This document shows, piece by piece, positions 5,700-64,000 of a stretch of 64,000 nt of DNA. The DNA is from a virus. The stretch covers positions 1 to 64,000 of the IMG/VR virus record IMGVR_UViG_3300025652_000047; one strand, written 5' to 3'. A model generated the notes under the pieces. The model made no database searches, was not told the DNA's origin, and was given only the letters and a program-made list of their open reading frames with translations. Numbering within the stretch: position 1 is the stretch's first letter; each line of letters begins with the position of its first letter. The translations under genes were made by a program, and so were the position numbers.

Positions 5700-5702
5700 A
5701 AA

Positions 5703-7355
5703 TTAACTTTCACATGCTATACAAGAGTTTATTTCTCTAGCAAAATTCTGAGCTTCAGACTCTCCTATTTGGTAATATAATGTTTTTACACCTTCTTTCC
5801 AAGCTGTAATATACAATTGATTAATATCTTTTATAGATATATCATCATGTATACTTAAATTTAAACTTTGGGATTGATCTATAAACTTCTGTCTTTGTGC
5901 AGCTTGAGTTATTATTTCCATAGGACTAATTTCTACAAAGCTTTTAAATACTTCTTTATTAGGAATATCTAAATGCTGTACAGAACCATTATTATCAAGT
6001 ATAGACTTCCATATAGTAGGTGTATTCTTACCTATAGATTCTAAATGTCTAAGTAATGTAGGATTTTTGTATACTGATTTTACTTTAGCAGTATCCTTTA
6101 CAAAGTAATTAGAAGTTATAGGTTCTATACCTAACGATACTTGTCCAAGTATAAAGCTAGAACTCTTAGTAGGTGCAATAGCCATAGTAGTTGTATTTGC
6201 TCTACCTTCAATATAACTATTACTTATTCCTAATTCTGTATGACAATACTCAGAAGCTTTATAGGAGTCTTTCTTTAGGGTTTTAAATACTTCTTGGTTA
6301 AATTGTTTAGCTTTTATAGATTCAAACTCTATAAAATGCTCTTGTAAGTAACTATGGTATCCTAAAACTCCTATTCCAATTGCTCTATGGTTCTCTGCAA
6401 ATCTTACTGCTCTACCCATTCCTGGTAAATTCTTAGCTTTATTAATAAAATCTTGCATTACTGCATTTAAAAATAAAGTATAACAATGAATAGCATTTGT
6501 ATCTTTTATTTCATCCCAATGTAGTAAATTAATACTACCTAAGCAACATACAAATGATTCATCTATATTACTAGGTAAACATATTTCTGAACAAAGATTA
6601 GATGCTAGTATAATTTCCTCTTTATAAGGACTATTATCATTTACATTATCTTTGAAAAATATATAAGGGTAGCCTACTTCTTTTCTGCTTTCTATTAACT
6701 TAGCCCATACTACTCTTGAATGCTGATCTCCAGCTATCATCTTTTCCATAAAAGAATTCCCTACACATATACCATGTTGTAAATTCTGTATATCATTACC
6801 TTCTTTTCCAATATCTAAAAATTCTAGTATATCGTCATGTTCAATATCTAAATATATAGCACAAGCCCCTCTACGAGCTTCAGCCTGCTTACATTTATCT
6901 ATTATGGTATCAAATATATGGGAATAGTGTGTAGGACCGTCAGCAAGCCCTCCTGTGCTAATAGGAGTACCTCTAGGTCTAATTGCAGATACATATGCAG
7001 ATGTACCTCCTCCATACTTAGACATCATTCCTAATTCTCTACCCATATTAAGGATAGAATCTAAAGAATCATCACAGTAAGAACCATAGCAGCTAATAGC
7101 TAGTCCATCTTTCCTACCAAAGTTAGTCCATACAGGAGTACTAAAGGAATAATATCCTAAACTTGCGTAATTATAAAATTCAGTTACAAAAGATTGTCCT
7201 AATCCAAGTATGGAAGCTGCATTTTCAGCCATATCTTGAATTCTGGATTCACCTGTTTCATTTTCTTTTAAGTATCCTCTACTTAAAAAAGTTCTACTCT
7301 CTTCATTTAACCAGTAGAATGGCTTTCTGTCTTTATTAATCATCGAATAAGTCAT
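5703..7355 (-). CDS. nrdA: Ribonucleoside-diphosphate reductase class I, alpha subunit (no ATP-cone)
   Basis: FSTPVW.N.G, ISCY, GGGT, SNLCSEI, AIAPT.SSS, C-terminal CIAC. Confidence 0.95.
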   Translation of the reverse strand: MTYSMINKDRKPFYWLNEESRTFLSRGYLKENETGESRIQDMAENAASILGLGQSFVTEFYNYASLGYYSFSTPVWTNFGRKDGLAISCYGSYCDDSLDSILNMGRELGMMSKYGGGTSAYVSAIRPRGTPISTGGLADGPTHYSHIFDTIIDKCKQAEARRGACAIYLDIEHDDILEFLDIGKEGNDIQNLQHGICVGNSFMEKMIAGDQHSRVVWAKLIESRKEVGYPYIFFKDNVNDNSPYKEEIILASNLCSEICLPSNIDESFVCCLGSINLLHWDEIKDTNAIHCYTLFLNAVMQDFINKAKNLPGMGRAVRFAENHRAIGIGVLGYHSYLQEHFIEFESIKAKQFNQEVFKTLKKDSYKASEYCHTELGISNSYIEGRANTTTMAIAPTKSSSFILGQVSLGIEPITSNYFVKDTAKVKSVYKNPTLLRHLESIGKNTPTIWKSILDNNGSVQHLDIPNKEVFKSFVEISPMEIITQAAQRQKFIDQSQSLNLSIHDDISIKDINQLYITAWKEGVKTLYYQIGESEAQNFAREINSCIACES

Positions 7356-8316
7356 TTGCGGTTATTGATTTTGTTTTCTTAGTATAATCTATTGATCTTT
7401 TATAGAATATATCTCCTTCCTTTTTACTTTGTAATTCTACATCAAACCATAGAGTTGATTTTAAAAGGCTTTCGTCTATATCAAATTCTTTATCATATCC
7501 TATACTTTCTAAACTATTATTAAATCTGTTCTTTATAAACTCTTGGACTACTTTTACAGGTAAGAAATCTAATTTCCCCTCTTCAAATATCCAATCTAGT
7601 ACTTTACATTCTGCTTTATAAGCTTTCTGAACTGCAGATCTTATTAATTCTTCAAATTCTGAATCAAACCATTCTGGGTTTTCTTTTTTAATTATATTAA
7701 TTAATTCAGATCCAAACTGTCCATGTATTGTTTCTTCTTTACTAGTTGCTTGAACTACATTATCCATTCCACTAAGTACATTAAGCTCTTTGTTGAAAGA
7801 CATTATAATTAAGAATTGACTAAATAAAGATACATTCTCTATAAATAAACTAAATAATAATACGGACTTAGTAAACATTTTATTATCTCTACTTCTAGTA
7901 CCATCTAAATACTTATTTAAGTACTTTATTCTAGCTTGAATAGCAGGTACTTCTACTACAGTTTCAAATTCTCTCTGCAATCCAAGTTTCTCTATTAGGA
8001 AACTATAAGCATCAAAATGTCGTACTTCACTATCTGAAAAAGTAGCTCCAGTTGCTTGAATTTCAAGTACGGGGAGTCTTTTATACAGATCTCCCCAGAA
8101 TGCTTTTACGTTAACTTCTATTTGAGATATAGCTAACATTGCTCTTTTTATAACTTCTCTTTGTACTGGTGTTAGAGTAGTTTTATAATCAGATATATCA
8201 TTAGTTAGATTAAATTCAGTATGTAACCAGTAACTATGCCTTATTGCTTCCTTATATTTGAGTAGTTGAGGATATTCATAAGGTAATAAGGTTTTTCTTT
8301 CTTTAAATATTCCCAT
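7336..8316 (-). CDS. nrdB: Ribonucleotide reductase class I, beta subunit
   Basis: PYEYP, SQIE, SEVRH..AY, FIENVSLFSQF, KEETIH di-metal ligands. Confidence 0.95.
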   Translation of the reverse strand: MGIFKERKTLLPYEYPQLLKYKEAIRHSYWLHTEFNLTNDISDYKTTLTPVQREVIKRAMLAISQIEVNVKAFWGDLYKRLPVLEIQATGATFSDSEVRHFDAYSFLIEKLGLQREFETVVEVPAIQARIKYLNKYLDGTRSRDNKMFTKSVLLFSLFIENVSLFSQFLIIMSFNKELNVLSGMDNVVQATSKEETIHGQFGSELINIIKKENPEWFDSEFEELIRSAVQKAYKAECKVLDWIFEEGKLDFLPVKVVQEFIKNRFNNSLESIGYDKEFDIDESLLKSTLWFDVELQSKKEGDIFYKRSIDYTKKTKSITANDLFDD

Positions 8317-8323
8317 TATTAGT

Positions 8324-8719
8324 TTATTTTAAATATTTATTTATAAATTCAAGTTCTCTAAATGCGGTTCCGTCTACTCCTGTAATAGGAGTATAAACAT
8401 TACTAGGTCTTGTAAATACTCTATATACTGTAGTAGTTCTAACTTTTGGACATCCATAAAATGCGTAAGTTTTTTCATTTAAAATACTTTGTACAAAATT
8501 GTCTTTAGTTAGTCTAGGAAAATACCCTTTAGCAATTCCAAATAGGGCATCTATAGACCTATATCCACCTTGATGAAAAGCTGTAGATGTGCATTTTTTA
8601 TCCCAAAAAGTATTATTCTTAGTAGTTTCGTCGTGGTATCCAAAAGTACGTTCATTATAAATATAATTTACTACATCTATAGCTCTTTTAGGAGTTTTTT
8701 TTATATATTGTCTTTTCAT
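8324..8719 (-). CDS. Hypothetical protein, paralog of 21447..21866
   Basis: Shared KCT...H...G.YRSIDA and C..V....YRV motifs. Confidence 0.65.
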   Translation of the reverse strand: MKRQYIKKTPKRAIDVVNYIYNERTFGYHDETTKNNTFWDKKCTSTAFHQGGYRSIDALFGIAKGYFPRLTKDNFVQSILNEKTYAFYGCPKVRTTTVYRVFTRPSNVYTPITGVDGTAFRELEFINKYLK

Positions 8720-8972
8720 CTATTAGTTCTTTATATACTGCAGCTTCAGAGTAATTTTCAGCATCAACAGCTTGTTTTAATAATCTATGTAATTCTTCTA
8801 CATCATTTTCTACTATAGTTCGGTCTATAGTTCGTATGACTCCATTTTCTACATCCCATGCTTTTTCTACAGTACAGACCCCGTCAATTTCCTTTTTAAA
8901 CTCTCTATCTGGCAATCTGTCTGGTATAGGATGAATAAAGCCATCAAAGTATTCATCAAATATTGTTATCAT
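8688..8972 (-). CDS. Protein with C-terminal UVR (UvrB/UvrC) coiled-coil motif
   Basis: L...L.QAV.AENY.EAA.YK..I. Confidence 0.65.
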   Translation of the reverse strand: MITIFDEYFDGFIHPIPDRLPDREFKKEIDGVCTVEKAWDVENGVIRTIDRTIVENDVEELHRLLKQAVDAENYSEAAVYKELIDEKTIYKKNS

Positions 8973-9454
8973 AATTTGTTTAATGTTTTATAATAGTCAG
9001 TTTCTTTAAGTTTTAGAAATTGATCATATTTTTGTGTAATATAAATTTTACCTACTATTCGAGTAGAATTCTGATCTCTAGAGATACAAGTGTTAAGTGG
9101 TGTATTAAACTCTTTGATATAGAATAAGTCTCCATAGAAACTTGCCATAGTCTCAAACTCTTCTAAAGAAGCTTTTTTTAAGTTAATATTGTCTACTATA
9201 ACATCTATACCTCTCATATTTAACAAAGATACTAATTTATTAACAGAATACCAAATTATTTGCTCATTTTCTTTTAATTTTTTATGATTCCAATATTCTC
9301 GTATTCTAGCTGGATTGTAAGCAAATAACATTTCCCTTAATCTATCAGCATTTACTCTGACAGTATTAGGGTTTTCCCTGATATACTGTTGGCTCCAAGT
9401 AGATTTCCCTGATCTTGGAGGTCCAACAGTAAGAATAATTTTATTCTTCTTCAT
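8969..9454 (-). CDS. Polynucleotide kinase-like P-loop kinase (AAA_33)
   Basis: GPPRSGKSTW, RVN.D.LR, VIVDN.NL, C..R...R. Confidence 0.85.
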   Translation of the reverse strand: MKKNKIILTVGPPRSGKSTWSQQYIRENPNTVRVNADRLREMLFAYNPARIREYWNHKKLKENEQIIWYSVNKLVSLLNMRGIDVIVDNINLKKASLEEFETMASFYGDLFYIKEFNTPLNTCISRDQNSTRIVGKIYITQKYDQFLKLKETDYYKTLNKL

Positions 9455-9662
9455 CTTTTATTTCATCTGTTGTATTTAATGCTAATTGTAATCGTTTCTT
9501 AAGCCTACGAATTTGTCCATTTCTAGACTCTATCTCACCTTGTTGTTTATCAATAATCCCAGCAGCTAAGTATAAATCTCTAGTTAGGTTTATATTATCT
9601 ACTTTTAAAGTATTGAAAGTTTCTGTTACTCTACCTGTTTTTTTAGTTTTTGTTTTAGCCAT
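9441..9662 (-). CDS. Hypothetical coiled-coil protein
   Basis: ORF in operon. Confidence 0.55.
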   Translation of the reverse strand: MAKTKTKKTGRVTETFNTLKVDNINLTRDLYLAAGIIDKQQGEIESRNGQIRRLKKRLQLALNTTDEIKDEEE

Positions 9663-9999
9663 CTTGTTTGTTATACCAGTTAATAAATTCTATTACTAAG
9701 GAATATACCTCTTCTATGATTGTACAGGAGCCAGGAAAGTTACCATATAAAGTTAAATCTTTAGTTACTTCTTGATAAAAAAGACATCTATGACCTGTTA
9801 TACACCAAATTTTCTCTACTACAGGCATTAACCAATTCCAATCTTCATCGAATAGTAGTTCGTCAAAACAGTTGCCGTCTTGTTTATCATAGACCATCTG
9901 TGACATCCTCATCTCATTGTCGTACCATCCAATGTTCTTTTCTTTAGTGAATCCCATAAATTCAGCTATACGTTTATTACTTTCTACTACATTATCCAT
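9655..9999 (-). CDS. Conserved Bacteroidota-phage protein
   Basis: N..IAEFMG ... DWNWLMPVVEKI ... FI.WYN. Confidence 0.65.
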   Translation of the reverse strand: MDNVVESNKRIAEFMGFTKEKNIGWYDNEMRMSQMVYDKQDGNCFDELLFDEDWNWLMPVVEKIWCITGHRCLFYQEVTKDLTLYGNFPGSCTIIEEVYSLVIEFINWYNKQDG

Positions 10000-10942
10000 C
10001 TAGCTGTTCATTTTTAAAAAAGAAAGACTTTGCTTTAGTCCATTCTCTCCAGTTATAATGAGGTCTTCTTTTATCAGAATTAAATAACCAATTCCAATAC
10101 CTACCCCATCTTTTAGCAGTAGTAGGGCATGAATTTAAAGTAGGAGCTGTATTAACTTCTAATACATATGCTTTATCATCCTTGAACATTACATCTACAC
10201 CTCCACAATCAAGCCCTAGAGCCTCTACAGCGTGTACTGATTGCTTTAATACATCTAAGTAAGGTTCTGAATCATTCCATCTTACAACTTCAAATCCAGC
10301 TACATCATCTTCTACATTACCACCTCTATTGGCTGCTATATTCCAAGCTATATTACCATTGTTAGGGTTTTGCTTCTTCATGAGTCTAAGTACTTTACCA
10401 TGCCCTACATGTGTTCTAAATTCTAATTCTTTATCTATGAATCTAGCATAGTAGTACTTTTCAGGATTATAATGTGCATTAAACTCTTGTATACTATTAA
10501 GTATAATAAAGTTTTTACCTTTACTATGTACAAAAGGTCTGCATATAATAGGTAAATGTTTCTTTTTAATGTTATTAGGATTGATACTCTTAGGTACTCT
10601 AACTTCAGACTCATTCATTATAACTCTAGCTAATCCTTTGTCAGTTGCATTCCGTAATCCAGGGATCTTATTATAGACTATAGAACTAGCATTAGTATCT
10701 ATTGGCTCTTGGGAACCCCATCTGAGTACTACATAATCAGAAAAGTCTAGAGTATCGTCTTTTACTTTCTTATAGTTTTCTTTACTTTCTTGACTAAATA
10801 CTCTATAGTATTTTACAAATTTACCATTTCTTTTAGTAAATTGTCTTCTTTGTACTAGATTACCTGTATCACATGATTTAAACGCTTCTTTAGTCGAAGG
10901 TCTTCCATGTTTACCTGTAAGTACTACTTTTACTTTTGTCAT
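9992..10942 (-). CDS. ATP-grasp peptide ligase (RimK/phiEco32-like)
   Basis: P.I.RP..HSKG, EFR.HV, LGLD.GGVD, VLEVNTAP. Confidence 0.9.
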   Translation of the reverse strand: MTKVKVVLTGKHGRPSTKEAFKSCDTGNLVQRRQFTKRNGKFVKYYRVFSQESKENYKKVKDDTLDFSDYVVLRWGSQEPIDTNASSIVYNKIPGLRNATDKGLARVIMNESEVRVPKSINPNNIKKKHLPIICRPFVHSKGKNFIILNSIQEFNAHYNPEKYYYARFIDKELEFRTHVGHGKVLRLMKKQNPNNGNIAWNIAANRGGNVEDDVAGFEVVRWNDSEPYLDVLKQSVHAVEALGLDCGGVDVMFKDDKAYVLEVNTAPTLNSCPTTAKRWGRYWNWLFNSDKRRPHYNWREWTKAKSFFFKNEQLDG

Positions 10943-36572: not shown

Positions 36573-36834
36573 TGAATTAGATAAAACATATGGGGAAAGG
36601 ATATATGGAGTATCTTATGATGTACCCCCAGATGATATAGTATCTGAGATTAAATACAATACTGCTAAGTTAGCTGACTCATGGGCTGACATAATGGAAA
36701 GTTCTACTTTAGATATGAAAGACCAAGATATGGATGCTCAAGCAAACACTATGGTTAAAGTAGATTATATAATTAGGGCTTTAGAAAAGTTAGAAGAGTG
36801 TAGTTTTTTAGCAGTAAAATCACAGTATATATGA
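36565..36834 (+). CDS. Hypothetical helical protein
   Basis: T.GE...G.S ... V..IK...A.L.D ... A...LE.....AVK. Confidence 0.55.
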   Translation: MSDELDKTYGERIYGVSYDVPPDDIVSEIKYNTAKLADSWADIMESSTLDMKDQDMDAQANTMVKVDYIIRALEKLEECSFLAVKSQYI

Positions 36835-37118
36835 AAGAAATAGAGTTGGCTGGAGCTAAATGGTGTGTACCATGTAAGAATACTAAAGATAATATATCTA
36901 AAGTAGCTTATCAAATGGGTGCAAATATGACTTACCATGACTTAGGAGCTAAAGAACATCTACATAGAAACCTAGGAGATTTAAAAGATAGAGGATATAT
37001 TATGGGTAATTTAGTAGGTATACCTATGTTTTTTGTAGATAAAAAGCAGATACCAGGTCCTACAAGTTTAGAAATGTCAGACATATATATTTGGATTACA
37101 GACAATTATAGTACTTAA
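36831..37118 (+). CDS. Thioredoxin/glutaredoxin-like protein
   Basis: GAKWCVPCK active site; GIP.F cis-Pro motif. Confidence 0.85.
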   Translation: MKEIELAGAKWCVPCKNTKDNISKVAYQMGANMTYHDLGAKEHLHRNLGDLKDRGYIMGNLVGIPMFFVDKKQIPGPTSLEMSDIYIWITDNYST

Positions 37119-40300: not shown

Positions 40301-40711
40301 CTAGCTTTAAGACCACAGCATGCAAAGGGAGATGGCATATACGAAAAAAATGTTACTCAATTTGGATATATGGTTGGAGCTAGAGGAGCAATAGGTAAAT
40401 TAACTATGGTAGATGATACTAATGATTTTTTATTATCAGATGTAGTTAGGAGTAATGGTACAAATAAATTAATTGAGACTATACCTTGTATATTTTTAAT
40501 TAGACAAATAGCACAGTTTACATTGAATGGTAACTTTGATGCAGTATCATCTTTAATTTTAGTACCTACATTTATTTCAGAACAAGAGTCCTATATGACT
40601 CAAATTAGAAAACAAAAAGAAACAAACAGATTACAGTTTTTATCAACAAATAGCGCAATACATGACAAGAATAATAGACACAAAGGAAAAGGTATTAACA
40701 GGCTTATCTAA
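37316..40711 (+). CDS. Terminase large subunit (crAss-like), intein-containing
   Basis: YW..E...CIEG...MPG.LYFY, RGGGKS Walker A, EE.G Walker B, GTSG, HDPY nuclease, YEANRG, GNFD.VS. Confidence 0.9.
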   Translation: MKEYKHWNCGQPDWIKIDNIKEFNLDEVKIFHPQDPRYVEYWKQEKKYCIEGRWERQFGGWMHMPGCLYFYGKFGIIVDTDKFTKVTEKIKPLIQDLEFEQAFMFWEARGFSGYIDDDEYTSDNMWFKFNEKGLPTTEEIEKMGDSQRTAVLNLINNNGNLKEYLTPRKNLRRIAEKPLGRPLFQNDAKNKDTMGCHAKDSKFRMYDGSVKEVFDIKIGDALMGPDSSPREVNEILTGENVMVKITPKYGDAFKITPNHILRVRETNKHTNEKLEYDLPVWEYLNKSDSKKSFIEIIDRNKIEYPEVPLVLDPYFIGLWLGDGFKREKLICINQGKDKEILNWLLEYCNSKDNLSYTTSVSKNGLSNGFTTRFRLTDSNLSGKGNYWAKTFRNNKHIPNEYLINSLDNRLKLLAGYIDSDGCYEKKSNRYTITSVDLDLLTQTQELARSCGFRAEINKPSKTGITDSLKYNLRIIGDINSIPVKLSYKKATGIREKFHRNTFTTQVLPPEKFYGVEVDKDHLYMLADGNKDHNSRGGGKSFFEAVAVQLYTLTFDGATEYIIDQVQKVETCIGSGDTDKSGELVQKVVDAMNEFAINPKLGAWGQQGDSDWTPNPFYRDMNGPTNAGNKQKGGWVHKYEKKINGRWVDGFGTGTRMFHVSYSSNKKAGAEAGAGGRYNVSTVEEKGLTILLIMLWNSNRATVMRNGVQFGVQSFLGTSGNAELVLPSKEMFTTPHEFNLVAYPDVWEGTGDLGFFIPAYMTYRQFKDVNGNTDVKAAREHWLKGYLAAGESANPKTLRMYCMNYPDIPSHMWVTDAQYLLPYEEAIDRERHLMDKKLYQTIGTAIDLRWDTSKQNGVTYDIVHNPQPFYDFPIRKDMERMDGEIMMYQTPQEIRGVVPNDMYFFVHDPYVSDNQEDGASLGVTYGFLNPKYSVTHDGSQLVCSYIGKPKGGKKAYYQNLEKLLAFYGNPFRGLAYEANRGEYCRSYFEKKGKLHLLALRPQHAKGDGIYEKNVTQFGYMVGARGAIGKLTMVDDTNDFLLSDVVRSNGTNKLIETIPCIFLIRQIAQFTLNGNFDAVSSLILVPTFISEQESYMTQIRKQKETNRLQFLSTNSAIHDKNNRHKGKGINRLI
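37901..38914 (+). mobile_element. Intein (338 aa) with LAGLIDADG homing endonuclease
   Basis: MG|CHAKDS...TPNHIL...FIGLWLGDG...LLAGYIDSDG...FYG.EVD.DH.Y.L.DG..DHN|S. Confidence 0.93.
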
Positions 40712-42071
40712 AGCTGCAGATGTAGTAGCCTCCACAATGGGAGCACATGGTAAGTATGTACTTATAAACAAGAATGGAGAATCTAGGTTTACAAAAGATG
40801 GAGTATCAGTAGCAGAAGAAATTATACTAAGAGATCCTGTAGAAAATATAGGTGCACAGTTAGTTATTAATTCTGCTAAAAAAACAGTAGAAGACTGTGG
40901 GGATGGTACAACTGCAACTTCAGTATTACTACGAGCAATGGCTAATAGAGATATTCCTACTAATACAAGGGAGTATGTATCTAAATTAAAGGAAGATATA
41001 GAAACAGTTATTTCCAAAGTAGAGTCAAGTTCTAAAGAGTTAAAGACTCTAGATGAATTAGAATCTATAGCCTCTACGTCTGGTAATTCTAAAGAAGTAG
41101 GACAAATACTTAAAACTGTATATGAGCAAGTAGGATTAGAGTCTAGAGTTACTTTAGAAGAAGACGAAGATTCTACAGAAACATATTATGAAGTTGCTAG
41201 AGGAGTTGAATTTATAGGTAATACAGGATATATTTCTGAGAGGTTTAAAAATCAACGTAATGGATACTGTATATTTGAGAATGCATTAGTTATTATAGAT
41301 GAAAATAAAAGTTCAGACCATACTACATATACGGAAGCTATAAAAGCTGCCAATGCTATGGGAGCACCTTTAGTAATAATTTCACCTAATTTTTCTAATG
41401 CAGTAATATCTACTATAGCTGCAAATATGTCTAAGGGATTAAAAGCTTGTTTGGTAAGTGCTCCAGGTTGGGGTAGAAATCAAAAAGAGAATTTTAGAGA
41501 TATAGAAGCTCTTAGAAATGAAAAGTGGCTAGTAGATAAAATAGTTATTACTCCAGTAGCATTTACTATCTTCACAGAGAGCAAAGAAGGTATAGATGAG
41601 AGAATCAAAGAAGTAGAAGATTCATTCGATGGGTATATAGAAGACCATGAAGTAAGATTTGCTGAAGTAAGAATAAATAAACTAAGAGGTTCCACTGCTA
41701 TTATATATGTAGGAGGAATAACAGAAAAGAACAGACAAGAAGAGTTTGATAGAATAGAAGATGCTCTAGGAGCTGTACAGACAGCCATAGAGGGAGGATA
41801 TGTAAAAGGAGGGGGTATCGCACTAGCTGAAGCCGCAAAAGGCTCTCAGATTGAGGATATATGTTTCTCTCCAGCATTCCAGATTAAAAGTAATGCAGAG
41901 TTAGACCAGACTATTGAAGAAGTCAATGTGCTTACTAAGAACCCATGTAATCTTTTAAAAGAAGGTATTATAGATCCTACTCCAGTAGTAGTTCAATCCT
42001 TAAAGAATGCATTTGCATCTTATGAGTTACTTTTAAACACAAATTATATACTAAATAATGAGAGCATTTAA
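40662..42071 (+). CDS. groEL: GroEL-like chaperonin
   Basis: V.STMG..G..V, TKDGVSVA, GDGTTAT, APGWG, I.VGG.TE....E..DRIEDAL.A...A...G.V.GGG.AL, GIIDP. Confidence 0.92.
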   Translation: MTRIIDTKEKVLTGLSKAADVVASTMGAHGKYVLINKNGESRFTKDGVSVAEEIILRDPVENIGAQLVINSAKKTVEDCGDGTTATSVLLRAMANRDIPTNTREYVSKLKEDIETVISKVESSSKELKTLDELESIASTSGNSKEVGQILKTVYEQVGLESRVTLEEDEDSTETYYEVARGVEFIGNTGYISERFKNQRNGYCIFENALVIIDENKSSDHTTYTEAIKAANAMGAPLVIISPNFSNAVISTIAANMSKGLKACLVSAPGWGRNQKENFRDIEALRNEKWLVDKIVITPVAFTIFTESKEGIDERIKEVEDSFDGYIEDHEVRFAEVRINKLRGSTAIIYVGGITEKNRQEEFDRIEDALGAVQTAIEGGYVKGGGIALAEAAKGSQIEDICFSPAFQIKSNAELDQTIEEVNVLTKNPCNLLKEGIIDPTPVVVQSLKNAFASYELLLNTNYILNNESI

Positions 42072-54467: not shown

Positions 54468-56714
54468 ATGAACACAACTTTTAATTGTTATAACAGTGTA
54501 ATCATAGAAAACCCTGATTCTAACCCTTACTATGGGATATTTTCAGGCTTTGACTATGTTAATATGTCTGCATATGGTGGGGATAGTTATACTGTAGTAA
54601 CATCAAACCAAGATATTATTGATGCTTTTGCAGCATTAGGTATACCAGTCAAACTAAATGGCTACGAGATAGTTATATTAGATACTACTTATAGTGCTGT
54701 AAATCTAACTTCTTCAAAGAATCCTGAAATAAAATTTACAGATGCATTAAGTGTAGATACTTGTATTACTACAGAGACTAGGTTTAACTTAGCATTTTAT
54801 GGAGGAGATTCTATAGAGTTTTTATATTCCATAGAAGAAATAAAAACTAGATTAGAATTTTTAACTCAAGTAGATGTTACAGTAACAACATGTGGAGCTA
54901 TTTTTGATAAGTATCCTGGATCTGTTCAAGATATTATAATAGATAGTGACCCTACAGCAACATATACCATAAGTACGGTAGCTACTTCAATTGATTTTGG
55001 AATACATAATGCTATAGATTTAACTCCATATGGAGGCACTATAATAGGTGTAACTACAGAAGCACAGGTTATAACAGCTTTTGCAGCATTAGGAATTACA
55101 ATAACTTTTGATGATACTGCACCTATATTGGTAGAGTACACAGGAGCTGTATACCCTATAGAATTATGCTTAATAGATACTTTTGAAATAACAGGTTTTA
55201 ACTTTGATAAAGTTAATTTTCCTGTAGAATACGGAGGTACACAAGTACTTAATTCACCTGCTGCTATACAGAGTTATTTAGCAACTAATTATTCAACATC
55301 TACTACGTTTGTAAATAACCCTACAGGTTATACTTACACTGTAGTTACTCCAGTATGTACAGAGATAGCAAATATAACTACAGATATATTCAATGTTGTT
55401 TCCGCTAATCCTGATATATATGAGTTTTGTATAGAACAAAATACATCTTTTTCTACTAATATATTGGGTAATGATTCAATGGTAGATGGTGAAGAAGTAA
55501 TTAAAATAAATGGACAAAGTGTTGTAACAGGTACTTCTGTTAATATTGCTGCTGGATTAGATATAATTTACGAAGGTAATGGAGATATTCAAATAGTAGG
55601 TTCAAATGATTACGTATCTAATTTAACAGACACAGTTACTTATACAATAAGAAACAATGATAATCAAGAGGCTGGGTCTTTTATTCAGTTTTGCTTTGCA
55701 GATACTCCAGTAGTTAATCCTGATGCAGTTACAATGACTTGTAATACGCCATCAGCGTTACTTACAGTATTAGCAAATGACTTTACTGCATACAATAACC
55801 TAACTATAACACATATAAATAATATACAAATAGGAGTACAAACTAGTATTAACTTAGAACCTGGGTTAGATATTACAAGTATAGATACTGCAGTAGGCTT
55901 TATAATTACACCTAGCGATGATTACCAAGGTTCTGGTAGTATATCTTATACAGTAACAAATGGAGCCTTTACAGCTACTGGGTACGTAGAGTATGTAGTA
56001 AGTGATTGTGATCCATGTGTTACAAACAATTTAACATTTCCAGTGACAGCAGATTGTGCTGAATTATGCTGGAGTTCATTATTAAATTCACTATCTCCAG
56101 TTGCTAATTTTATACTACAATTCTTAGATAGTTCTGGGAACCCAGTAGAAAATGCAAATGGAGACATAATAAAAGTTGCAAATGGTACATTCTATGATTC
56201 GAGTAGTACTTTGCCTATTGACACTTGTATACCTTTTAAAGCAGGAGACTATTCAGTAGAAATAATAGATTCTGATTTAGGTAGTAATTTACTATGTCCT
56301 TCATTGGATTTTACTATGTTGCCAGTAACTTGTGATGGAAACCCTTGTACATTTAGTTATAATGGACCAGGTGGAGTAGCTTCTAGTTTACAATTTAATG
56401 TAGAAGTAGGTCCTACAGCTACTATAACAATAGTAGATTTTGAACCTTATAGTCAGCCAGATGGAATAGTAATAGAGTATAATGGCAGTGTTATATATCA
56501 TACAGGATTATCTGCAACAATGCCATATATAAGTGATGCAATAACTAGTTTTGTATGTAGTGGAATAATTTATACTTCACAAATAGTTCCTGATCCTGTT
56601 AATGTAGACATATCAGTACCATACATACCAGGAGTAGAAACTGCTTTAGTAAGTATTTATGGAAAACCATGTACAACTACAGGTTGGAATCTAACAATTA
56701 AATGTACCGCATAA
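54468..56714 (+). CDS. Virion/tail-associated protein with cadherin-like (Ig_9) repeats, Cys-rich
   Basis: A.PD......N......L.ND ... TYT repeats (x2); internal duplication AYGG...V.T....I.AFAALGI. Confidence 0.65.
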   Translation: MNTTFNCYNSVIIENPDSNPYYGIFSGFDYVNMSAYGGDSYTVVTSNQDIIDAFAALGIPVKLNGYEIVILDTTYSAVNLTSSKNPEIKFTDALSVDTCITTETRFNLAFYGGDSIEFLYSIEEIKTRLEFLTQVDVTVTTCGAIFDKYPGSVQDIIIDSDPTATYTISTVATSIDFGIHNAIDLTPYGGTIIGVTTEAQVITAFAALGITITFDDTAPILVEYTGAVYPIELCLIDTFEITGFNFDKVNFPVEYGGTQVLNSPAAIQSYLATNYSTSTTFVNNPTGYTYTVVTPVCTEIANITTDIFNVVSANPDIYEFCIEQNTSFSTNILGNDSMVDGEEVIKINGQSVVTGTSVNIAAGLDIIYEGNGDIQIVGSNDYVSNLTDTVTYTIRNNDNQEAGSFIQFCFADTPVVNPDAVTMTCNTPSALLTVLANDFTAYNNLTITHINNIQIGVQTSINLEPGLDITSIDTAVGFIITPSDDYQGSGSISYTVTNGAFTATGYVEYVVSDCDPCVTNNLTFPVTADCAELCWSSLLNSLSPVANFILQFLDSSGNPVENANGDIIKVANGTFYDSSSTLPIDTCIPFKAGDYSVEIIDSDLGSNLLCPSLDFTMLPVTCDGNPCTFSYNGPGGVASSLQFNVEVGPTATITIVDFEPYSQPDGIVIEYNGSVIYHTGLSATMPYISDAITSFVCSGIIYTSQIVPDPVNVDISVPYIPGVETALVSIYGKPCTTTGWNLTIKCTA

Positions 56715-58207
56715 TGATATCATATAACACTAATTATATTAATATAGTAAATGATTATATTCCTCAAGTTTTTAACTCTAAGGATTTACTAAAATTATCT
56801 GTAGAGGGTAAAAAGAACTGTTGTACAGATTTAGAATCTATAGAGTTTGATTTACAATATGATCCATCTTGTATATTTACTGCAAGTTATCAGAATTATC
56901 AAGAGCAATCTACATGTACCCCTACAGGAAGTAAAAATCCAGAGGATTGCTTACCTAATCCAATTGCATCTTACTATAAGAATGTATCGGAGTTATATAT
57001 TTTGTTAGGAGGTAAGTCTACTAATATACTTGATAGAGTATATGATATGACTTTAGAAGCTGATATTACACTATTACAGGAAGATATTATTGCTTATTTT
57101 ACAGCTAACAATATAAAAGCCGTAGTAGAAGTTAATATCACTACTAACAGTACAGGATATCTAAAAACAGAAATACTTATATCTAATTTACCTACTAATG
57201 TAAAGTTTGAAAGCTTTATATTAGCAAATGATGAGACTTGTTATGTTAACATAGTTGCAGTATGTGACTTTGGTATTGCATGTGCAGTATCTCAATATGA
57301 GTTACCTAATAATGCTTATATATATTCTATAGTAACAGATGATACTGAATTAATATTATCATCTACTGTAGGGAAGTTTGCGACAGAAGAAGAGTTACAA
57401 GTACTTACTGATTTAATGGCTAATCTCAATTACAATATTGAGTTTTCATTTGATGATACTAATTTTATAGTAAGTACATTAGATAATCCAATTAACTATA
57501 TTAAGTATAAAGTAGGAGCTGGGGAATTTACTTCTTTTAGTACATGTATAACATATGAAGAAGAGCTACCTAAATGTGTATACTCTACAAAGATACCAAA
57601 AGGAAATACAGTTAATTCTGTGTTAGTATATAATGAAGACGAAAGTTTTACTTCTTCTTTATTTGTAGGATCAATAGATTTAACTACGGATACTTATGAA
57701 AATGATTTATACCAAAGTTTCTTACCTTCTAACAGTACTATAACAGTTGAAGAAGACTCTATAACTATAGAGATTACAGATGGAACATATATTCCTTATT
57801 CTATAATAGTAGATGATGTAGTATATTACTTTGCTTGTAACTCGTTAGAATATTTTCAAAATAACTATGACTCCGACTCAATAGAGTTTACAGGTAATGG
57901 GCTCAACTTAAAGTCTGAGTATTTAGGAGGATATACTTCAGGAGTATACAACGTAAAGCTTACAGTTGAGACACAAGAGCAGATAATATCAGAAAGCTAT
58001 TGTTTGTTTGTTGATTTAGACCTCAAGTGTAAAATAGCAAAGCTTACAGACTTAGATGAGCTAAGAGAAGCTATATTTTTATATGAAGCTTTAAATAGCA
58101 TACAAGACTGTGCAGATTGTGAATGTGAAAATGCTTGTATTTTATACCAAGAACTATACAATATTCTTTCAAGAAACAATATAACAAGTGAAAACTGTAA
58201 CTGCTAA
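56702..58207 (+). CDS. Tail hub/collar-like protein with Cys-rich C-terminus
   Basis: GVY.V.L ... C.FVD..LKCK ... C..C.C..AC..Y..L ... CNC. Confidence 0.55.
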   Translation: MYRIMISYNTNYINIVNDYIPQVFNSKDLLKLSVEGKKNCCTDLESIEFDLQYDPSCIFTASYQNYQEQSTCTPTGSKNPEDCLPNPIASYYKNVSELYILLGGKSTNILDRVYDMTLEADITLLQEDIIAYFTANNIKAVVEVNITTNSTGYLKTEILISNLPTNVKFESFILANDETCYVNIVAVCDFGIACAVSQYELPNNAYIYSIVTDDTELILSSTVGKFATEEELQVLTDLMANLNYNIEFSFDDTNFIVSTLDNPINYIKYKVGAGEFTSFSTCITYEEELPKCVYSTKIPKGNTVNSVLVYNEDESFTSSLFVGSIDLTTDTYENDLYQSFLPSNSTITVEEDSITIEITDGTYIPYSIIVDDVVYYFACNSLEYFQNNYDSDSIEFTGNGLNLKSEYLGGYTSGVYNVKLTVETQEQIISESYCLFVDLDLKCKIAKLTDLDELREAIFLYEALNSIQDCADCECENACILYQELYNILSRNNITSENCNC

Positions 58208-58433
58208 TATAATAGATAGTAAAGTAAATGCAATAAAGGCTGCTAAGTTCCTTATGGACTGTGGTTACGATGATAGTGAGTATATAGACAATTGGTTAAA
58301 AAATTCTGAATGTCCAGAACTTGCTTGTAAGATCATACTAGTAGATCCTTTATGTTCTACAACTTCAAAAAGTTGTATTACAATAAAGAATAAAATTAAA
58401 GTAACAGAAAAATCAAAGATTTGTAATGATTAA
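58188..58433 (+). CDS. Small Cys-rich structural protein
   Basis: ORF overlapping neighbours in the structural operon. Confidence 0.5.
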   Translation: MKTVTANIIDSKVNAIKAAKFLMDCGYDDSEYIDNWLKNSECPELACKIILVDPLCSTTSKSCITIKNKIKVTEKSKICND

Positions 58434-61400
58434 GATAACAAAAGAATTTACTTTAGAAAATGTAGTGGGAGAATTCACATATGAGTGGGTACTCCCTGAT
58501 TGCATTACTCTAATTTCTAGTGTAGTAGTAGATACTACAATAACAGCAACTTTTGATTTCTGCGATAATAACTGCTTATTAGATTCTAATCTAATAGGCT
58601 TAACTATTAAAAGTAGTGATGGATGTATAACAGAAATAGAAAGCATCTTTAATAACGTCTGTAAGGACTTTGCATTTACACAAGGAGGTATAGTCCCACT
58701 AGAAGACTGTGACGGCTGTACAATAGCTTATAAAGCACCTGTCAACGATATTAATGGAGTTTATAACTGGACTTATGATGAAGATATCTTTACAGCATCA
58801 TTATTGGGTAATAGAATATACTTAACGTATAAAGACAATATAGAAGTTACAGTTACTTCTACTCCATTATCAGTAGTAGTAAATAATGAATATGGATGTA
58901 CATTAGAAGACACCCTACCTTTACCTATATGTTCATATGAAAGTTTAAAGTTTGACTTTGAACTAGTATGTTCAGGAGATAGAGATGGTAACTTTGCATA
59001 TGTAACTCCAAAATTAACACCTTTAAATAGTCCTTGTGGTTTAGAACTAGATTATAGAACTACTACAATATTGTCTGTATTAAATATAGACTCTTCGTAC
59101 CTTACTTTAAGTACAGGAGCTGATTATGTTAAAGTTATATTAGATGGAATAAGCCCTAATAGTACTATAGTAGTAGAGTTACAAACAAAAGATTGTACAG
59201 GATTCCCTTACATATATACTTTATGTTTAGCACCTAGACCTTGTTCTGATGTTCCTAACATAAATAACTTTGAACATACTTTTGGGTGTGAAGAATGTGC
59301 AGATACAACTAAATTTAGACCCGTAAACTCTAGTAGAGAGGAAGATTGCAGCTCTAATTTAAGTATCAACTTAGAAGATTTAATAGAGGGAGATATAGAC
59401 TGGTCTACATTTACGTTTGTACCTAGAACAGGACAAACATTAAACGGATCTACTTCTCTTACTACACCACATGGTGACGCTAATTTAGATATAAACAGAA
59501 ATGTATTATTTACATATACTGGAGGATTAGTTAATACTGAAGTAGTTGAATATAGAATAGAAATAAACGGAGTAGAAACCTTTGGAGTATTAAACTTTAA
59601 AGGAACCAGATGTGGAGATACTCCAGTAGCAATAGATTTAGAAGTTTGTGTACTATCAGATAGCCAAACAGACTATATTGATATAACCGCAAATGATTCT
59701 GGAGATATAGCAGAGCTTATAATTGTAGAATATCCTCAAGTACAGACTTTAGTAAATGGATTTAATGTTAAGTTCATTCCTAATGGGTATATTGGGACAA
59801 CTGTATTGAAATATAGAGTAAAGAGTTCTACAGGTGTAGAGTCAAATATAGCTAGAGTTGCTATTACTTCAATAAATGCAGATATAACTACTACAGATTT
59901 ATCAGTATGTCTAGGAGATATACTCGATCTTAATACTTTAGTAGATGATAATACTGGAATGCCTTGGTCATTTGTAGGGTTTACTACAGAAGTATCAGAT
60001 ATTCCAGGAGATTTAGATAGTTCTACGTTCAGCGTAGGAGATGTTATAAGTAATCCTGCAATTACATTATCAGAAGCAGGTATTTTTACTTTCCAATATG
60101 GTGAAATAGGTACATGTAATGCATATACTACAGTCAATGTAGAAGTAATAGATGATAATGCACAAGTAGATTTAACTGTTGCAGTATGTAATAGTACTGC
60201 AGATTCTTATAATCTCAATGAGTTAACTAATTTAACTGATGGTACATGGACTGATTTAAATCAAACTAATGTATTAGACGTAGATGGAGTTACAGTATAC
60301 TCTACAATACCAACAGGAGCCTATATGTTTAGGTATAATAAAGTAAGTACAGGTATATATAATACAACAACTTGTAACAATACTTTTATATTAACTTTAG
60401 ATATGCAATCAGAACTAGAAGACGTTGCTCCTATTTGTTTAAGCTATTGTTCTTATGGTCCAAATCCTGAATTAGATTTAGATTGTAAAACCAATCCTAT
60501 AGTACTTAATTCAGAACCTACTACAGGATGTGAATATGATTTATATGAGCAAGTAGGGTTACCTACAGGTAGTAAAATACAGCTATTAAATGCACCATTT
60601 ACACCTATATATTTACATATTAATGGTATGGATCTACTGTTAACAACAGGGTCTTTCTTACCAGAAGGGCAAGCTATATGGGCTAACGGAGATGCACCTT
60701 TAGGTACATATGTATTTAGGGCTTTCTACGGAGATGCTTGTACAAAAGAAGTTGATTTTGAAGTAAACATATATGCTGCATCTTGTCAGTTAGAAAGTGA
60801 TACTATTACAAAATGTAACTCTGATAATGCATTCAATATATTCACTGAATTAACAGGAAGTTCTAGTTGTTTAGATAATAATATAACAGGATTAACACTA
60901 ATATCTGAAAACCTAACAGGTACAGGTACAGTTGATTACAATTTAACAACAGGAGACTTTACTCCAGGAGCACCAGGACAATGGGTGTTTGGATTTACTT
61001 CTACAGTAATTGGAACTGATGGTACTTGCTCTGCATGTAATGTAGATGCTACTATAACAGTAATAGTTACTCCAATACCAGGACCAGGAGTTCCGCAACC
61101 AGGTACAGTCTGTAATGATGGTACTTGTGTAGTAGATGTATACCCTGACATGTTTATAGCTAATCAAACTATATTAGGTACATTCTGCTTTGACGGATTT
61201 GCAACAACTCCATCAGGAACTCCTATAGCAGGAGGATGGGGAGGTATAGAGCCTACATTATTACCTGGAGATATATCAGGTCCTGCATATACTTTTGAAG
61301 GAGCACTAGAAGGTTTCTATTTCTTTAGTAATAAAGTAGAAGATGCCAATGGTTGTTCTTCAACTTCACAAACAATAGTTCAAGTAACTAGTGCAGGTTC

Positions 61401-61758
61401 AGCAGGAACAGCAGATGTAATTGCAGATGTTTGTGAATTAACTCCAGCATGTTATACTCTACTAGATCACTTAACAGGAGAAGGTACAGGTGGAACATGG
61501 ACAACAGGAGGTACTTACACAACAGCATTTATTAGTTGTGACCCAGGATTCTTTGTATTAGGAGATACAGCAACATTTAATACAGAAGGTATGCCAGCAG
61601 GCACATATACCTTTACATATACAGTAACTACTCCAAACAACTTATATCCTATATATGATGGGTGTATATCTTGTACAGGTAGCACAGCAACAATTTCAAT
61701 AACAATAACAGCAGCAATACCAGCAGGGGGAGGAAGTTCTCAGATGGTATGTGCATAA
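58426..61758 (+). CDS. Large Cys-rich Ig-repeat fibre protein (putative base)
   Basis: Repeats of AG...VC.....L...L....G.W......G.Y.F.Y....C....V.V; ends PAGGGSSQMVCA. Confidence 0.7.
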   Translation: MIKITKEFTLENVVGEFTYEWVLPDCITLISSVVVDTTITATFDFCDNNCLLDSNLIGLTIKSSDGCITEIESIFNNVCKDFAFTQGGIVPLEDCDGCTIAYKAPVNDINGVYNWTYDEDIFTASLLGNRIYLTYKDNIEVTVTSTPLSVVVNNEYGCTLEDTLPLPICSYESLKFDFELVCSGDRDGNFAYVTPKLTPLNSPCGLELDYRTTTILSVLNIDSSYLTLSTGADYVKVILDGISPNSTIVVELQTKDCTGFPYIYTLCLAPRPCSDVPNINNFEHTFGCEECADTTKFRPVNSSREEDCSSNLSINLEDLIEGDIDWSTFTFVPRTGQTLNGSTSLTTPHGDANLDINRNVLFTYTGGLVNTEVVEYRIEINGVETFGVLNFKGTRCGDTPVAIDLEVCVLSDSQTDYIDITANDSGDIAELIIVEYPQVQTLVNGFNVKFIPNGYIGTTVLKYRVKSSTGVESNIARVAITSINADITTTDLSVCLGDILDLNTLVDDNTGMPWSFVGFTTEVSDIPGDLDSSTFSVGDVISNPAITLSEAGIFTFQYGEIGTCNAYTTVNVEVIDDNAQVDLTVAVCNSTADSYNLNELTNLTDGTWTDLNQTNVLDVDGVTVYSTIPTGAYMFRYNKVSTGIYNTTTCNNTFILTLDMQSELEDVAPICLSYCSYGPNPELDLDCKTNPIVLNSEPTTGCEYDLYEQVGLPTGSKIQLLNAPFTPIYLHINGMDLLLTTGSFLPEGQAIWANGDAPLGTYVFRAFYGDACTKEVDFEVNIYAASCQLESDTITKCNSDNAFNIFTELTGSSSCLDNNITGLTLISENLTGTGTVDYNLTTGDFTPGAPGQWVFGFTSTVIGTDGTCSACNVDATITVIVTPIPGPGVPQPGTVCNDGTCVVDVYPDMFIANQTILGTFCFDGFATTPSGTPIAGGWGGIEPTLLPGDISGPAYTFEGALEGFYFFSNKVEDANGCSSTSQTIVQVTSAGSAGTADVIADVCELTPACYTLLDHLTGEGTGGTWTTGGTYTTAFISCDPGFFVLGDTATFNTEGMPAGTYTFTYTVTTPNNLYPIYDGCISCTGSTATISITITAAIPAGGGSSQMVCA

Positions 61759-61771
61759 AACAAATAAAAAA

Positions 61772-62539
61772 ATGGCTTGTACAATACTATTAAGCGACCA
61801 ATTAAATTTACCTAGTCCAGGGGGTTATTATATATACCTGGGATATAATGTAGAATCCCAGATTAATGCATCTATAAACACTCCAGGGGACAATGGGGAT
61901 TTGTGTTTTGGAATAACAGACCCTTTAACTGACAGTACTCCTAGTTTATATGCGGATGTAGGACCACTAAATGGATTAGACGCTAATGCTTTTATCTCTG
62001 GAACCCCTAGCCCTACAATAGATTTTACAGGAGTAACTCCAGGGTTCTACGGCTTTATGTACATAGTAGGAGATGATAGTGATAATGGAATAATAGATGG
62101 AATAGAATGTGGAGATGTAGAATGCTTTGAAATAGAAGTAATAGCAGGTCCTTCTGCAATGTCAACATGTAATGAAGGAGCAGATGATCCTTGTCTTTCT
62201 ATATGTGAATCTAATTTACCTACAGATCCTGTTATAGATTTAACTTCGTTTTTTGATGTAGACCCTGCTGTTGCAGGAGCCCCTGGATTTATTGCAGGAG
62301 GAAGTTGGGAACATACTGGGGGAGCATTTGTTACTTTAAACGGCAATGATGCTACTATTTTAGCAGGAGCACCTATAGGTACTATTGTATTTACATATAC
62401 AATTCTACCTACTGAGTTAGGCGCAGTTCACCCTCCAGATGGAGATTGTGATGATTGTACTTCAATAGTAACAGTAACTATACAAATAACTGAACAACTA
62501 TCAGCAGGTGAAGGAAGTTCATTAGCAGTTTGTAACTAA
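61772..62539 (+). CDS. Two-domain Ig-repeat protein (putative polymerising subunit); true start MACTILL
   Basis: Starts mid-repeat (ACTILLSDQL...PGGY); ends with the first strand of a repeat, SAGEGSSLAVCN. Confidence 0.75.
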   Translation: MACTILLSDQLNLPSPGGYYIYLGYNVESQINASINTPGDNGDLCFGITDPLTDSTPSLYADVGPLNGLDANAFISGTPSPTIDFTGVTPGFYGFMYIVGDDSDNGIIDGIECGDVECFEIEVIAGPSAMSTCNEGADDPCLSICESNLPTDPVIDLTSFFDVDPAVAGAPGFIAGGSWEHTGGAFVTLNGNDATILAGAPIGTIVFTYTILPTELGAVHPPDGDCDDCTSIVTVTIQITEQLSAGEGSSLAVCN

Positions 62540-62550
62540 AATATAAATAG

Positions 62551-64000
62551 ATGGCGTTTTGTTTAAATACACTTTTAGATCCTGGATACATACCTAATGG
62601 CACTTGGCTACAGGTATCTAATCCAGCAGGTGCAACTATGTATACTCCAGTAGGAGCAGATGGTTGTATAGAAGATTGGAGTATAGAAAGTGATAAGTTA
62701 ACAGTTACAGGAGAATCTTGTCCTGTACCTGGAACTTATACATTTAGTTATGATATACCTGGATTAGACTGTATAGACCCTGCATTTGTAGAAGTAGATA
62801 TAGTAGATAGTCCAACTGAAATAGCGACCCCTGATACATTATATGTATGTAGGGATGGTTCAGAAGTTGTAGGAGCTGATCATACTTTTATGTTAGCAAA
62901 TGGATCTACTATAACTAATTACAGTATAGATGCTTTCTTTAGACAATGTGATGGGGTATCTATTATAGATTATTCATTATCAGCAACTACAGGTGGCAGT
63001 GGTATTGCAGATTTTGAAAATTCATTTACACTAATTTGGAATAATATAGATAATATTGTAAATTCAAACTTTGGGTTTACACATACAACTCAAAGTTGTA
63101 CTACAATAAATATAAATACTTTTGGAGATTTAAATTGTGGAGACCAGCTAGATATTAAAATGATAGTAAGTCCTGATATAGAGGGTTACAATAGTACCTT
63201 AGTTACTTGTGATACAGTAAATGTATATGATAATATGCCAACTGGGTTAGTTACGTTTCTAAATAATATAACCGTTGGACCTCTATCTCCTATAGGTGGA
63301 GAAGCATTATTTAATATAGATACAGTAGGATATAATGGATGTACTTCAACAGGGCAAATAAGAATACAATCTAGTACAGACAATGGTGTAACATGGAAAA
63401 ATATTTTAATTTCTGATACTGTTGATCCTTTATTAAATCCTACTATACAATATAAAGTTATATGGATACCAGAAGGAGTACCTGCAGGATTTGATTGTGG
63501 AGGTATTTCTATTCTTACGATAGATACGGATAATTGTTGTGATGATACTCCAGGAATAGAATGCCAAGAAGCATTAGTAGAAGAGGCAGGAACTGATTGG
63601 GAAATAACTATAAATGGAGTTAGTGAAGTTTATTATAGTCCTTCTAGTTTTGTACTTAATGATGCTCTTAATCAACAAGCATTACTAGATTATTTAAATA
63701 CTATAGCATGTAATACGGTTACAATTTCAGCAAATGTAACTACGGGAATATTACAAATATTTAACTTTAACGGTACAATAGATAGTATAACAAGTTCTTC
63801 AGGAAATATAGGAGTATTTACTTCTCCTTGTTGTACTGAAGTTACAGATATATCTTTCTTGAGTGGTAGTTTTATTACTGATACAATACCTTGTTCAACT
63901 GCAGATATAGCACTAGTTAATACTGGGAATGAAAATCTTATTTTAGAAGCTAATCAAGATGTAACAGAATGGGAGTTAACTGGAATAGATGGAACTGTTA
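62551..64000 (+). CDS. Cys-rich Ig-repeat protein, partial (runs off the window; absent from ORF track)
   Basis: Manual translation MAFCLNTLLDPGYIPNGTWLQV...PGTYTFSYDIPGLDCIDPAFVEVDIV...; no stop seen to the window end. Confidence 0.8.
   Translation, partial: MAFCLNTLLDPGYIPNGTWLQVSNPAGATMYTPVGADGCIEDWSIESDKLTVTGESCPVPGTYTFSYDIPGLDCIDPAFVEVDIVDSPTEIATPDTLYVCRDGSEVVGADHTFMLANGSTITNYSIDAFFRQCDGVSIIDYSLSATTGGSGIADFENSFTLIWNNIDNIVNSNFGFTHTTQSCTTININTFGDLNCGDQLDIKMIVSPDIEGYNSTLVTCDTVNVYDNMPTGLVTFLNNITVGPLSPIGGEALFNIDTVGYNGCTSTGQIRIQSSTDNGVTWKNILISDTVDPLLNPTIQYKVIWIPEGVPAGFDCGGISILTIDTDNCCDDTPGIECQEALVEEAGTDWEITINGVSEVYYSPSSFVLNDALNQQALLDYLNTIACNTVTISANVTTGILQIFNFNGTIDSITSSSGNIGVFTSPCCTEVTDISFLSGSFITDTIPCSTADIALVNTGNENLILEANQDVTEWELTGIDGTV

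Follow-up and report, generated by a model that had tools for sequence, protein, structure and literature searches.

Can the end of one virion protein serve as part of a domain of the next? Three consecutive genes raise this question at the 3' end of a 64,000-nucleotide (nt) stretch of viral DNA, the first 64 kb of the 78,947-bp linear IMG/VR record IMGVR_UViG_3300025652_000047 (hereafter the window). The genes, here called P1, P2 and P3, carry immunoglobulin (Ig)-like domains. An original prediction, made from the sequence alone, had proposed that one such repeat is split across three gene boundaries, and that the three proteins assemble by donor-strand complementation into a pilus-like fibre. 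We find that the repeat is indeed split, always at one conserved phase, although three genes have two boundaries between them and not three. The reading that we favour, by a narrow balance of probability and from sequence evidence, is that the C-terminal tail of each upstream protein supplies the first strand (strand A) of the following protein's domain in trans. This would create a plug-and-socket joint and a defined P1-P2-P3 chain, which differs in important respects from the pilus first envisaged.

A repeat divided at one phase

The domain family of P1, P2 and P3 also occurs in giant cellular adhesins of the type IX secretion system (T9SS), where the repeats are uninterrupted within one chain. 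The profile used to examine the junctions was built from 200 uninterrupted repeats of these adhesins only, with none from phage proteins. Aligned by themselves, the N-termini of the downstream (acceptor) proteins entered this profile at position 23-26. When the last 14 residues of the upstream (donor) protein were prefixed, the alignment became continuous from position 7-9 and gained 6-11 bits. The gain was obtained in all 11 junctions, which came from the window and from the related loci L003, L008, L012, L014, L015 and L017, and in each case it was larger than all 10 shuffled-tail controls. (Labels of the form L0xx denote related loci, P0xxx protein homologues, and G001 a related complete genome.) The original prediction had described an orphan first strand at the ends of P1 and P2 and a mid-repeat start in P2 and P3, and both are confirmed by the profile across the junctions.

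The position of the cut can be read from the P2-P3 concatenate. The end of P2, LSAGEGSSLAVCN, followed directly by the start of P3, MAFCLNTLLDPGYIPNGTW, aligns continuously with the repeat consensus pnaGtdntlsvCnsssstidLftllgggadagGtW, which places the nick in the loop after the first strand. The gene boundaries thus nick the domain between strands A and A', in a loop that is about three residues shorter at the split than in usual repeats. Donor-strand complementation involves an Ig-like domain minus one strand, and at the level of sequence the acceptors are such domains, without strand A.

The ends of the three proteins follow simple rules. P1 and P2 end as AG-x5-7-VC-x, and P2 and P3 start as MA(x)C..LL. 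P1 has a unique N-terminal half followed by PKD/Ig-like repeats and a C-terminal tail, with no acceptor N-terminus; its homologues, of 1090-1164 amino acids (aa), all end in AG...C-x. The internal repeat motif that had been proposed for P1 was borne out, with some repeats carrying the Cys of the VC pair only, without a second Cys. P3 was read at full length: it ends in ...IIRLQF, without a donor tail, and is the most variable of the three. It is probably the distal, receptor-binding end. The ends of the open reading frames (ORFs) thus bear out the three classes of the prediction, namely a donor-only P1, a P2 with both acceptor and donor ends, and an acceptor-only P3. Coordinates are collected in Table 1.

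Table 1. Positions in the window of the P1-P3 genes, their predicted joint segments and the genes immediately 5' of them.
Feature	Position	Strand	Basis or remark
P1, 1110 aa, N-terminus MIKITKEF..., C-terminus ...IPAGGGSSQMVCA (stop)	58426..61758	+	ORF; donor only
P1 tail AAIPAGGGSSQMVCA, predicted linker and strand A of the domain continued in P2	61714..61755	+	Profile alignment across the junction; conserved in homologues
P1-P2 spacer, 13 nt, A-rich	61759..61771	+	P2 in another frame; further in-frame stop
P2, 255 aa, two Ig-like domains, MACTILLSDQ...LSAGEGSSLAVCN (stop)	61772..62539	+	Acceptor N-terminus (MAC...) and donor tail SAGEGSSLAVCN
P2 N-terminal acceptor domain, residues 1-124, predicted to start at A', without strand A	61772..62143	+	Profile entry at position 25; AlphaFold2 model
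P2 tail, residues 242-255	62495..62536	+	Most conserved segment of the P2 family
P2-P3 spacer, 11 nt	62540..62550	+	Frame changes; TAG directly 5' of the P3 ATG in the P3 frame
P3, 535 aa, start MAFCLNTLLDPGYIPNGTW (MAFCLNTLLD), ends at genome position 64158	62551..64000 (in window)	+	Acceptor N-terminus
Three conserved Cys-rich virion genes, 748, 501 and 81 aa, 5' of P1	54468..58433	+	Travel with P1-P3

The domain family

P1, P2 and P3 gave no match in Pfam (E<=0.1) or PHROGs. When 1.84 billion representatives, clustered at 50% identity, were searched with a profile of P2 homologues, however, 133 proteins matched. About 55 of these stand alone, at 170-275 aa, and match over their entire length. 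All the others are giants of 1,000-5,600 aa, each with 10-46 repeats; CHU_C type IX secretion domains occur in those sampled, alongside Ig_7 (PF19081) and K319L-like PKD (PF22352) domains. The P2-family profile also matches the solved PKD domains of KIAA0319L (E 6.4e-6). Because of these matches to the CHU_C/Ig_7/PKD giants and to KIAA0319L, the repeat is identified as the PKD/Ig_7-type module of Bacteroidota surface adhesins. Structural alignments of the P2 model show similarity of its fold to Ig, cadherin and Rib domains at Z ~6.

The cellular giants have neither donor nor acceptor ends, but signal peptides and T9SS sorting domains instead. Conversely, P1, P2 and P3 lack the marks of T9SS cargo, with no CHU_C match and no hydrophobic leader in any of them (MIKITKEF, MACTILL and MAFCLNT).

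Conservation among related phages

The prediction called for the same gene-boundary phase in homologous phages and named fused homologues as evidence against it. The phase held in the approximately 55 diverged standalone proteins and in recurring loci, and the homologues are separate genes, not single fused ORFs. Nine close P2 homologues (34-50% identity) agree with P2 in length and at both ends, and in 10 homologues of this identity range the tail residues A245, G246, S250, A252, V253, C254 and N255 are invariant. The wider family alignment comprises 47 of the approximately 55 members, at 24-52% identity. In it, 42 of the 47 proteins stop exactly one residue after the last Cys, and that residue is N in 33. 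A Cys is found at residue 2-4 in 43 of the 47, whereas fewer than 4% of the T9SS-adhesin repeats have a Cys at the start of strand A'. The second residue is small (A, S, P, C, T or G) in every member, compared with 15 of 48 background ORFs of this phage, and permits removal of the initiator Met.

Sorting of the matches by their ends gave the same three classes: donor only (the P1 family, P0080 and P0091), acceptor and donor (the P2 family and P0119), and acceptor only (the P3 family and P0144). At least four diverged phage lineages keep the order P1-P2-P3. With unchanged ends it is found again in L003, L007, L008, L009 and L010. P1-P2 recurs in L006, L014 and L015, and P2-P3 in L012.

The genes of a joint are not always neighbours. 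In L011 a P2-type gene is followed by genes for small membrane proteins, and in L012 such genes precede P2-P3. G001, a complete 106,629-bp genome with terminal repeats (loci L018, 852-3144, and L016, 8001-8963), encodes a P1-like donor of 515 aa (MITITK..., ending AGADSEIATCE) and then an acceptor of 244 aa, while a second acceptor (320 aa, MACPVINLRSDLL) stands alone 11 kb downstream of the sole donor. A lone, distant acceptor minus its first strand is hard to explain unless another protein supplies that strand, and the layout suggests alternative tips for one base. Joints kept between non-adjacent genes, as in L011, L012 and G001, would make sense only for an association at the protein level.

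A further arrangement is found in L017 (IMGVR_UViG_3300020049_006862, 5187-10238), which is sensible only with TGA as a sense codon and was read in table 4. It encodes, in series, a 491-aa donor, a 230-aa acceptor without tail or N-terminal Cys, a 207-aa protein with acceptor and donor ends, and a 745-aa acceptor.

Two side observations concern the P2 gene itself. A P3 homologue was 99% identical over its first 130 residues while a P2 homologue was only 50% identical (P0002 and P0015). These two may share a Logan contig (the longest is 7089 bp for both), and if they do, P2 modules may swap between otherwise near-identical fibres. Separately, the last 21 nt of P2 (TCATTAGCAGTTTGTAACTAA, 62519-62539) are identical in the window, L003, L008 and L010, where the P2 proteins are about 40% identical. 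A recombination hotspot was considered as the cause and not adopted, as codon bias may suffice.

Joint between proteins or closure within each

In the favoured reading, P1, P2 and P3 would be consecutive segments of one beads-on-a-string virion fibre or adhesin. Each upstream protein would end in a linker plus strand A, and each downstream protein would begin at A'. After translation, the tail of P1 would become the missing edge strand of the first domain of P2, and the tail of P2 would do the same for the first domain of P3. Since the upstream end is the very strand that the next protein lacks, the three proteins probably plug into one modular fibre. The chain would have a polarity: P1, which is conserved, would form the virion-proximal base, and the variable P3 the distal end. 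Docking in trans, together with a disulfide at the joint, the stoichiometry of the chain and its place on the virion, is what we infer.

An AlphaFold2 model of P2 (predicted local distance difference test, pLDDT, 82.5; predicted template modelling score, pTM, 0.75) shows two Ig-like sandwiches. The N-terminal one has strands at residues 4-6, 19-26, 82-84, 91-99 and 115-123. It has no counterpart of residues 142-145 (...LSIC), the strand-A segment of the uninterrupted domain 2, which is a beta-strand in the model. The homologous tail (residues 241-255) is modelled without beta pairing, and structural alignments end the compact domain 2 at about residues 241-246, with the tail outside. The prediction had named folding of the tail into its own domain as a point against itself; this was checked in the monomer models, and the tail is not a strand there. 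Both domains superpose on the end-to-end tandem domains of cadherin-23 and SraP (root-mean-square deviation 5.6-6.0 Å over 138-150 residues), so the modelled tail would exit opposite P2's own N-terminus.

The cysteines offer a second view of the joint. In 124 uninterrupted cellular repeats the Cys count is even, with two Cys in 82 repeats and four in 41, and a single repeat with five. All 82 two-Cys repeats have one Cys in strand A and one just before the last strand. From this pattern, the tail Cys is homologous to a Cys that bonds inside the following domain. As the counterpart of the strand-A Cys of uninterrupted repeats, the invariant penultimate tail Cys could lock the joint by an inter-protein disulfide in an oxidising medium. 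It was suggested originally that the tail Cys pairs with the N-terminal Cys of the next subunit. This possibility was put in doubt by whole lineages that keep the tail Cys but lack the N-terminal one (P0008, P0010, P0022, P0028, L006, L011 and L014), and by the uninterrupted repeats, in which the partner of the homologous Cys is the one just before the last strand. One lineage without the N-terminal Cys (P0022, L011 and L014) has three Cys in the N-terminal domain, two in domain 2 and one in the tail, a pattern that, judged by these counts, would fit only pairing between proteins. In the crassvirus PhicrAss001, the tail is stabilised by disulfides between proteins (PMC10172136).

Several results weigh against docking in trans. 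Donors and acceptors are unequal in number, with one donor for two acceptors in G001 and two for three in L017. Strand A is an edge strand, and an acceptor domain may be stable without it. In 42 of the 47 aligned members the N-terminal domain has an even number of Cys, and an odd number in domain 2 is made even by the tail Cys; this parity would allow all disulfides to form within one protein. As a discriminator between pairing within and between proteins, Cys parity points different ways in different lineages, and the total parity of P1 and P3 is uninformative. Finally, the P2 tail has a pLDDT of 92 and then 83 in the full-length model, and when residues 125-255 were folded alone at equal alignment depth as a control, the tail kept a pLDDT of about 83, again not as a strand. 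Its confident placement is therefore independent of the acceptor domain, and the tail may pack on its own domain.

The even parity and the persistent tail confidence are in line with closure within one protein. The tail would fold on or cap its own last domain, its Cys bonding the extra Cys of a CxxC before the last strand, and the N-terminal Cys would take the role of the strand-A Cys in the acceptor domain. The cut would then be a convenient recombination junction for module exchange, and the proteins would join by other surfaces or not at all. Two further findings point the same way. Both Cys of a CxxC (or adjacent CC) before the last strand are present in nearly all last domains of donors, versus 42 of 124 cellular repeats. 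Between two phages, P2 (40% identity) is far more diverged than the C-terminus of P1 (61-74%), which suggests module exchange. However, closure leaves unexplained why the surplus strand of the upstream protein is exactly the one missing from the downstream protein, and why the gene stops one residue after the Cys. Moreover, the tail is neither a strand nor inside a compact domain in either model, and the three, two and one Cys of P0022, L011 and L014 do not suit pairing within a protein. We consider closure unlikely, though it deserves to be kept in mind.

Chain or polymer

The original prediction took P2 for a self-polymerising subunit that would add head to tail into a shaft of variable length, with P1 as base and P3 as cap. 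P2 does have both socket and plug. In L011 and L014 the P2-type gene has no adjacent downstream acceptor, so that its tail has no other known partner, and the Cys parity of this lineage fits pairing of the tail with the N-terminal domain. Nevertheless, one P2 gene is found at every locus, and the ends of the proteins carry distinct signatures. P1 tails read SSQMVC-x and P2 tails S[LI]AVCN, while P2 heads read MAC.I.L and P3 heads MA.FCL..LLDPGY, and these differences are conserved between phages whose P2 proteins are 40% identical. In the related phage of L017, several different modules are encoded in series, not copies of one. In addition, identity to the L003 proteins falls from 60% for P1 to 40% for P2 and 27.5% for P3, which is the usual trend from virion-proximal to receptor-binding proteins. 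The single P2 gene, the distinct ends, the identity gradient and the different modules of L017 favour a defined hetero-chain, and we regard a P2 shaft as improbable, though less so in the L011/L014 lineage.

That concatenated ends read as one domain could also mean that the three ORFs are a single gene broken by error or mutation, or joined by read-through, frameshifting or bypassing, but this is scarcely credible when independent assemblies from many samples, and about 55 diverged clusters, show the same cuts, and when each downstream gene has its own ATG with the conserved MA(x)C start. All stops are TAA. The spacers measure 13 and 11 nt in the window and 6, 12, 13, 33, 99 and 100 nt elsewhere, and over this range of 6-100 nt the frame relation varies and up to four extra in-frame stops occur. 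These spacers, frames and stops exclude read-through, frameshifting and assembly error, and there is no translational fusion of the three proteins.

Genomic context

The window has a G+C content of about 31% and encodes a large terminase, a portal and a major head protein (PHROGs). The portal is about 23% identical over its full length to the crAss-like portals of Bacteroides, Flavobacterium and Cellulophaga phages, and for this reason the virus is placed as a distant, marine-type crAss-like phage. The genes P1, P2 and P3 sit in a late plus-strand block, 3' of the head genes. The phage collection contained nothing that matched the region or P2 at the DNA or protein level, viral contigs searched with P2 alone gave no match, and genome contigs searched for relatives yielded none.

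Of the three Cys-rich virion proteins encoded directly upstream of P1 (Table 1), the 748-aa protein has a Big_9 Ig domain (Pfam), and each of the three has a Cys within its last 1-4 residues. Counting P1 and P2, five consecutive virion proteins (54468-62539, plus strand) end in this manner, with ...KCTA, ...NCNC, ...ICND, ...VCA and ...VCN, and their homologues in L003, L006, L008 and L014 mostly also end near a Cys.

The block 3' of P3 (L002 5176-19783, equal to genome positions 64176-78783) encodes a collagen-repeat fibre protein, a 1825-aa fibre with fibritin-like repeats, a 1021-aa fibre and a 1136-aa adhesin with DUF285 (BspA-like) repeats (E 1e-186).

Two genes nearer the terminase may be recorded here. 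A gene for a 469-aa GroEL-like chaperonin (40662-42071, plus strand; Pfam Cpn60_TCP1, E 2.7e-24) is placed between the terminase and portal genes and overlaps both. Directly 5' of the terminase, a 95-aa ORF (36831-37118, plus strand) contains a WCVPC motif and has sub-threshold matches only to DsbA (E 0.015) and thioredoxin (E 0.068). Its product could assist the Cys-rich virion proteins as a redox helper.

Significance and comparison with known systems

If the joint forms as proposed, it would explain how long, flexible, multi-protein fibres are assembled in crAss-like phages; the cryo-electron microscopy study of PhicrAss001 could not resolve fibres (PMC10172136). It would also explain how receptor-binding ends are swapped while the virion-proximal base is left untouched, since conservation is much higher at the connector ends than in the intervening modules. 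It is probably on modules of this kind that host range depends in marine and gut phages of Bacteroidota. In practical terms, the joint would provide a handle for predicting which fibre genes pair in uncultured phage genomes, and engineered split-domain ligation tags would have in it a natural counterpart. A wider proposal, which we put forward tentatively and with less confidence than the joint itself, is that the split PKD domain is a general, possibly disulfide-latched plug-and-socket connector for exchangeable fibre segments in crAss-like and other Bacteroidota phages. One donor base would then serve alternative acceptor tips, and the three clustered Cys of the joint (in the tail, at the N-terminus and before the last strand) would permit thiol-disulfide exchange when the partners dock.

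Trans completion of Ig-like domains is familiar from other settings. In the SpyTag/SpyCatcher pair, an Ig-like domain is reconstituted in trans from a terminal strand and the remaining part, and a covalent lock then forms. That split is an engineered one, of CnaB2, with an isopeptide lock and another fold family, whereas the split in P1-P3 is natural and its putative lock a disulfide. In the type V pili of Bacteroidota (FimA/Mfa1), C-terminal strands fill the groove left by the removed N-terminal strand of the next subunit. The bacteria that make these pili belong to what we take to be the host phylum of this phage. Type V pilins are lipoprotein precursors that are activated by proteolysis and have a different two-domain fold. 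In P1, P2 and P3, by contrast, there is no signal peptide, lipobox or Pfam FimA/Mfa match, and it is the gene, not a protease, that leaves the strand out.

Chaperone-usher pili (Fim, Pap and Caf1) are also built from an incomplete Ig-like fold that is completed by a strand of the neighbouring subunit (PMC4789730). In those pili it is the last strand (G) that is missing and an N-terminal extension that donates, whereas at the P1-P3 joints the first strand (A) is missing and the donor would be C-terminal. They are homopolymers that depend on a periplasmic chaperone and an usher, whereas P1-P3 would assemble in the cytoplasm or on the particle, more likely as a defined hetero-chain. A scan of neighbouring genes revealed no chaperone or usher family, and P1, P2 and P3 have no signal peptides.

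The original prediction also held that no phage fibre assembled in this way had been described. Our literature searches indeed turned up no description of a phage fibre assembled by donor-strand complementation, but completion of an Ig domain has a precedent in the Lactococcus phage Tuc2009. In its crystal structure, a 25-residue C-terminal hairpin of BppU completes the Ig-like beta-sheet of BppA (PMC4742702), and the composite resembles a titin Ig domain (PMC4742702). Trans completion of an Ig domain between phage structural proteins has thus been solved once. In both cases a C-terminal extension completes, or in P1-P3 would complete, the Ig-like domain of a separately encoded protein, with the difference that P1-P3 are known from sequence. 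The Tuc2009 donor is a two-strand hairpin and its acceptor the C-terminal domain of an accessory carbohydrate-binding protein, whereas in P1-P3 a single strand A would complete the N-terminal domain of the next segment. Unlike the Tuc2009 interface, the P1-P3 joint would be serial, with an invariant Cys and a PKD-type domain. What is new here is therefore the combination of serial joints, donation of the first strand, a PKD-type domain and an invariant penultimate Cys, in a crAss-like phage.

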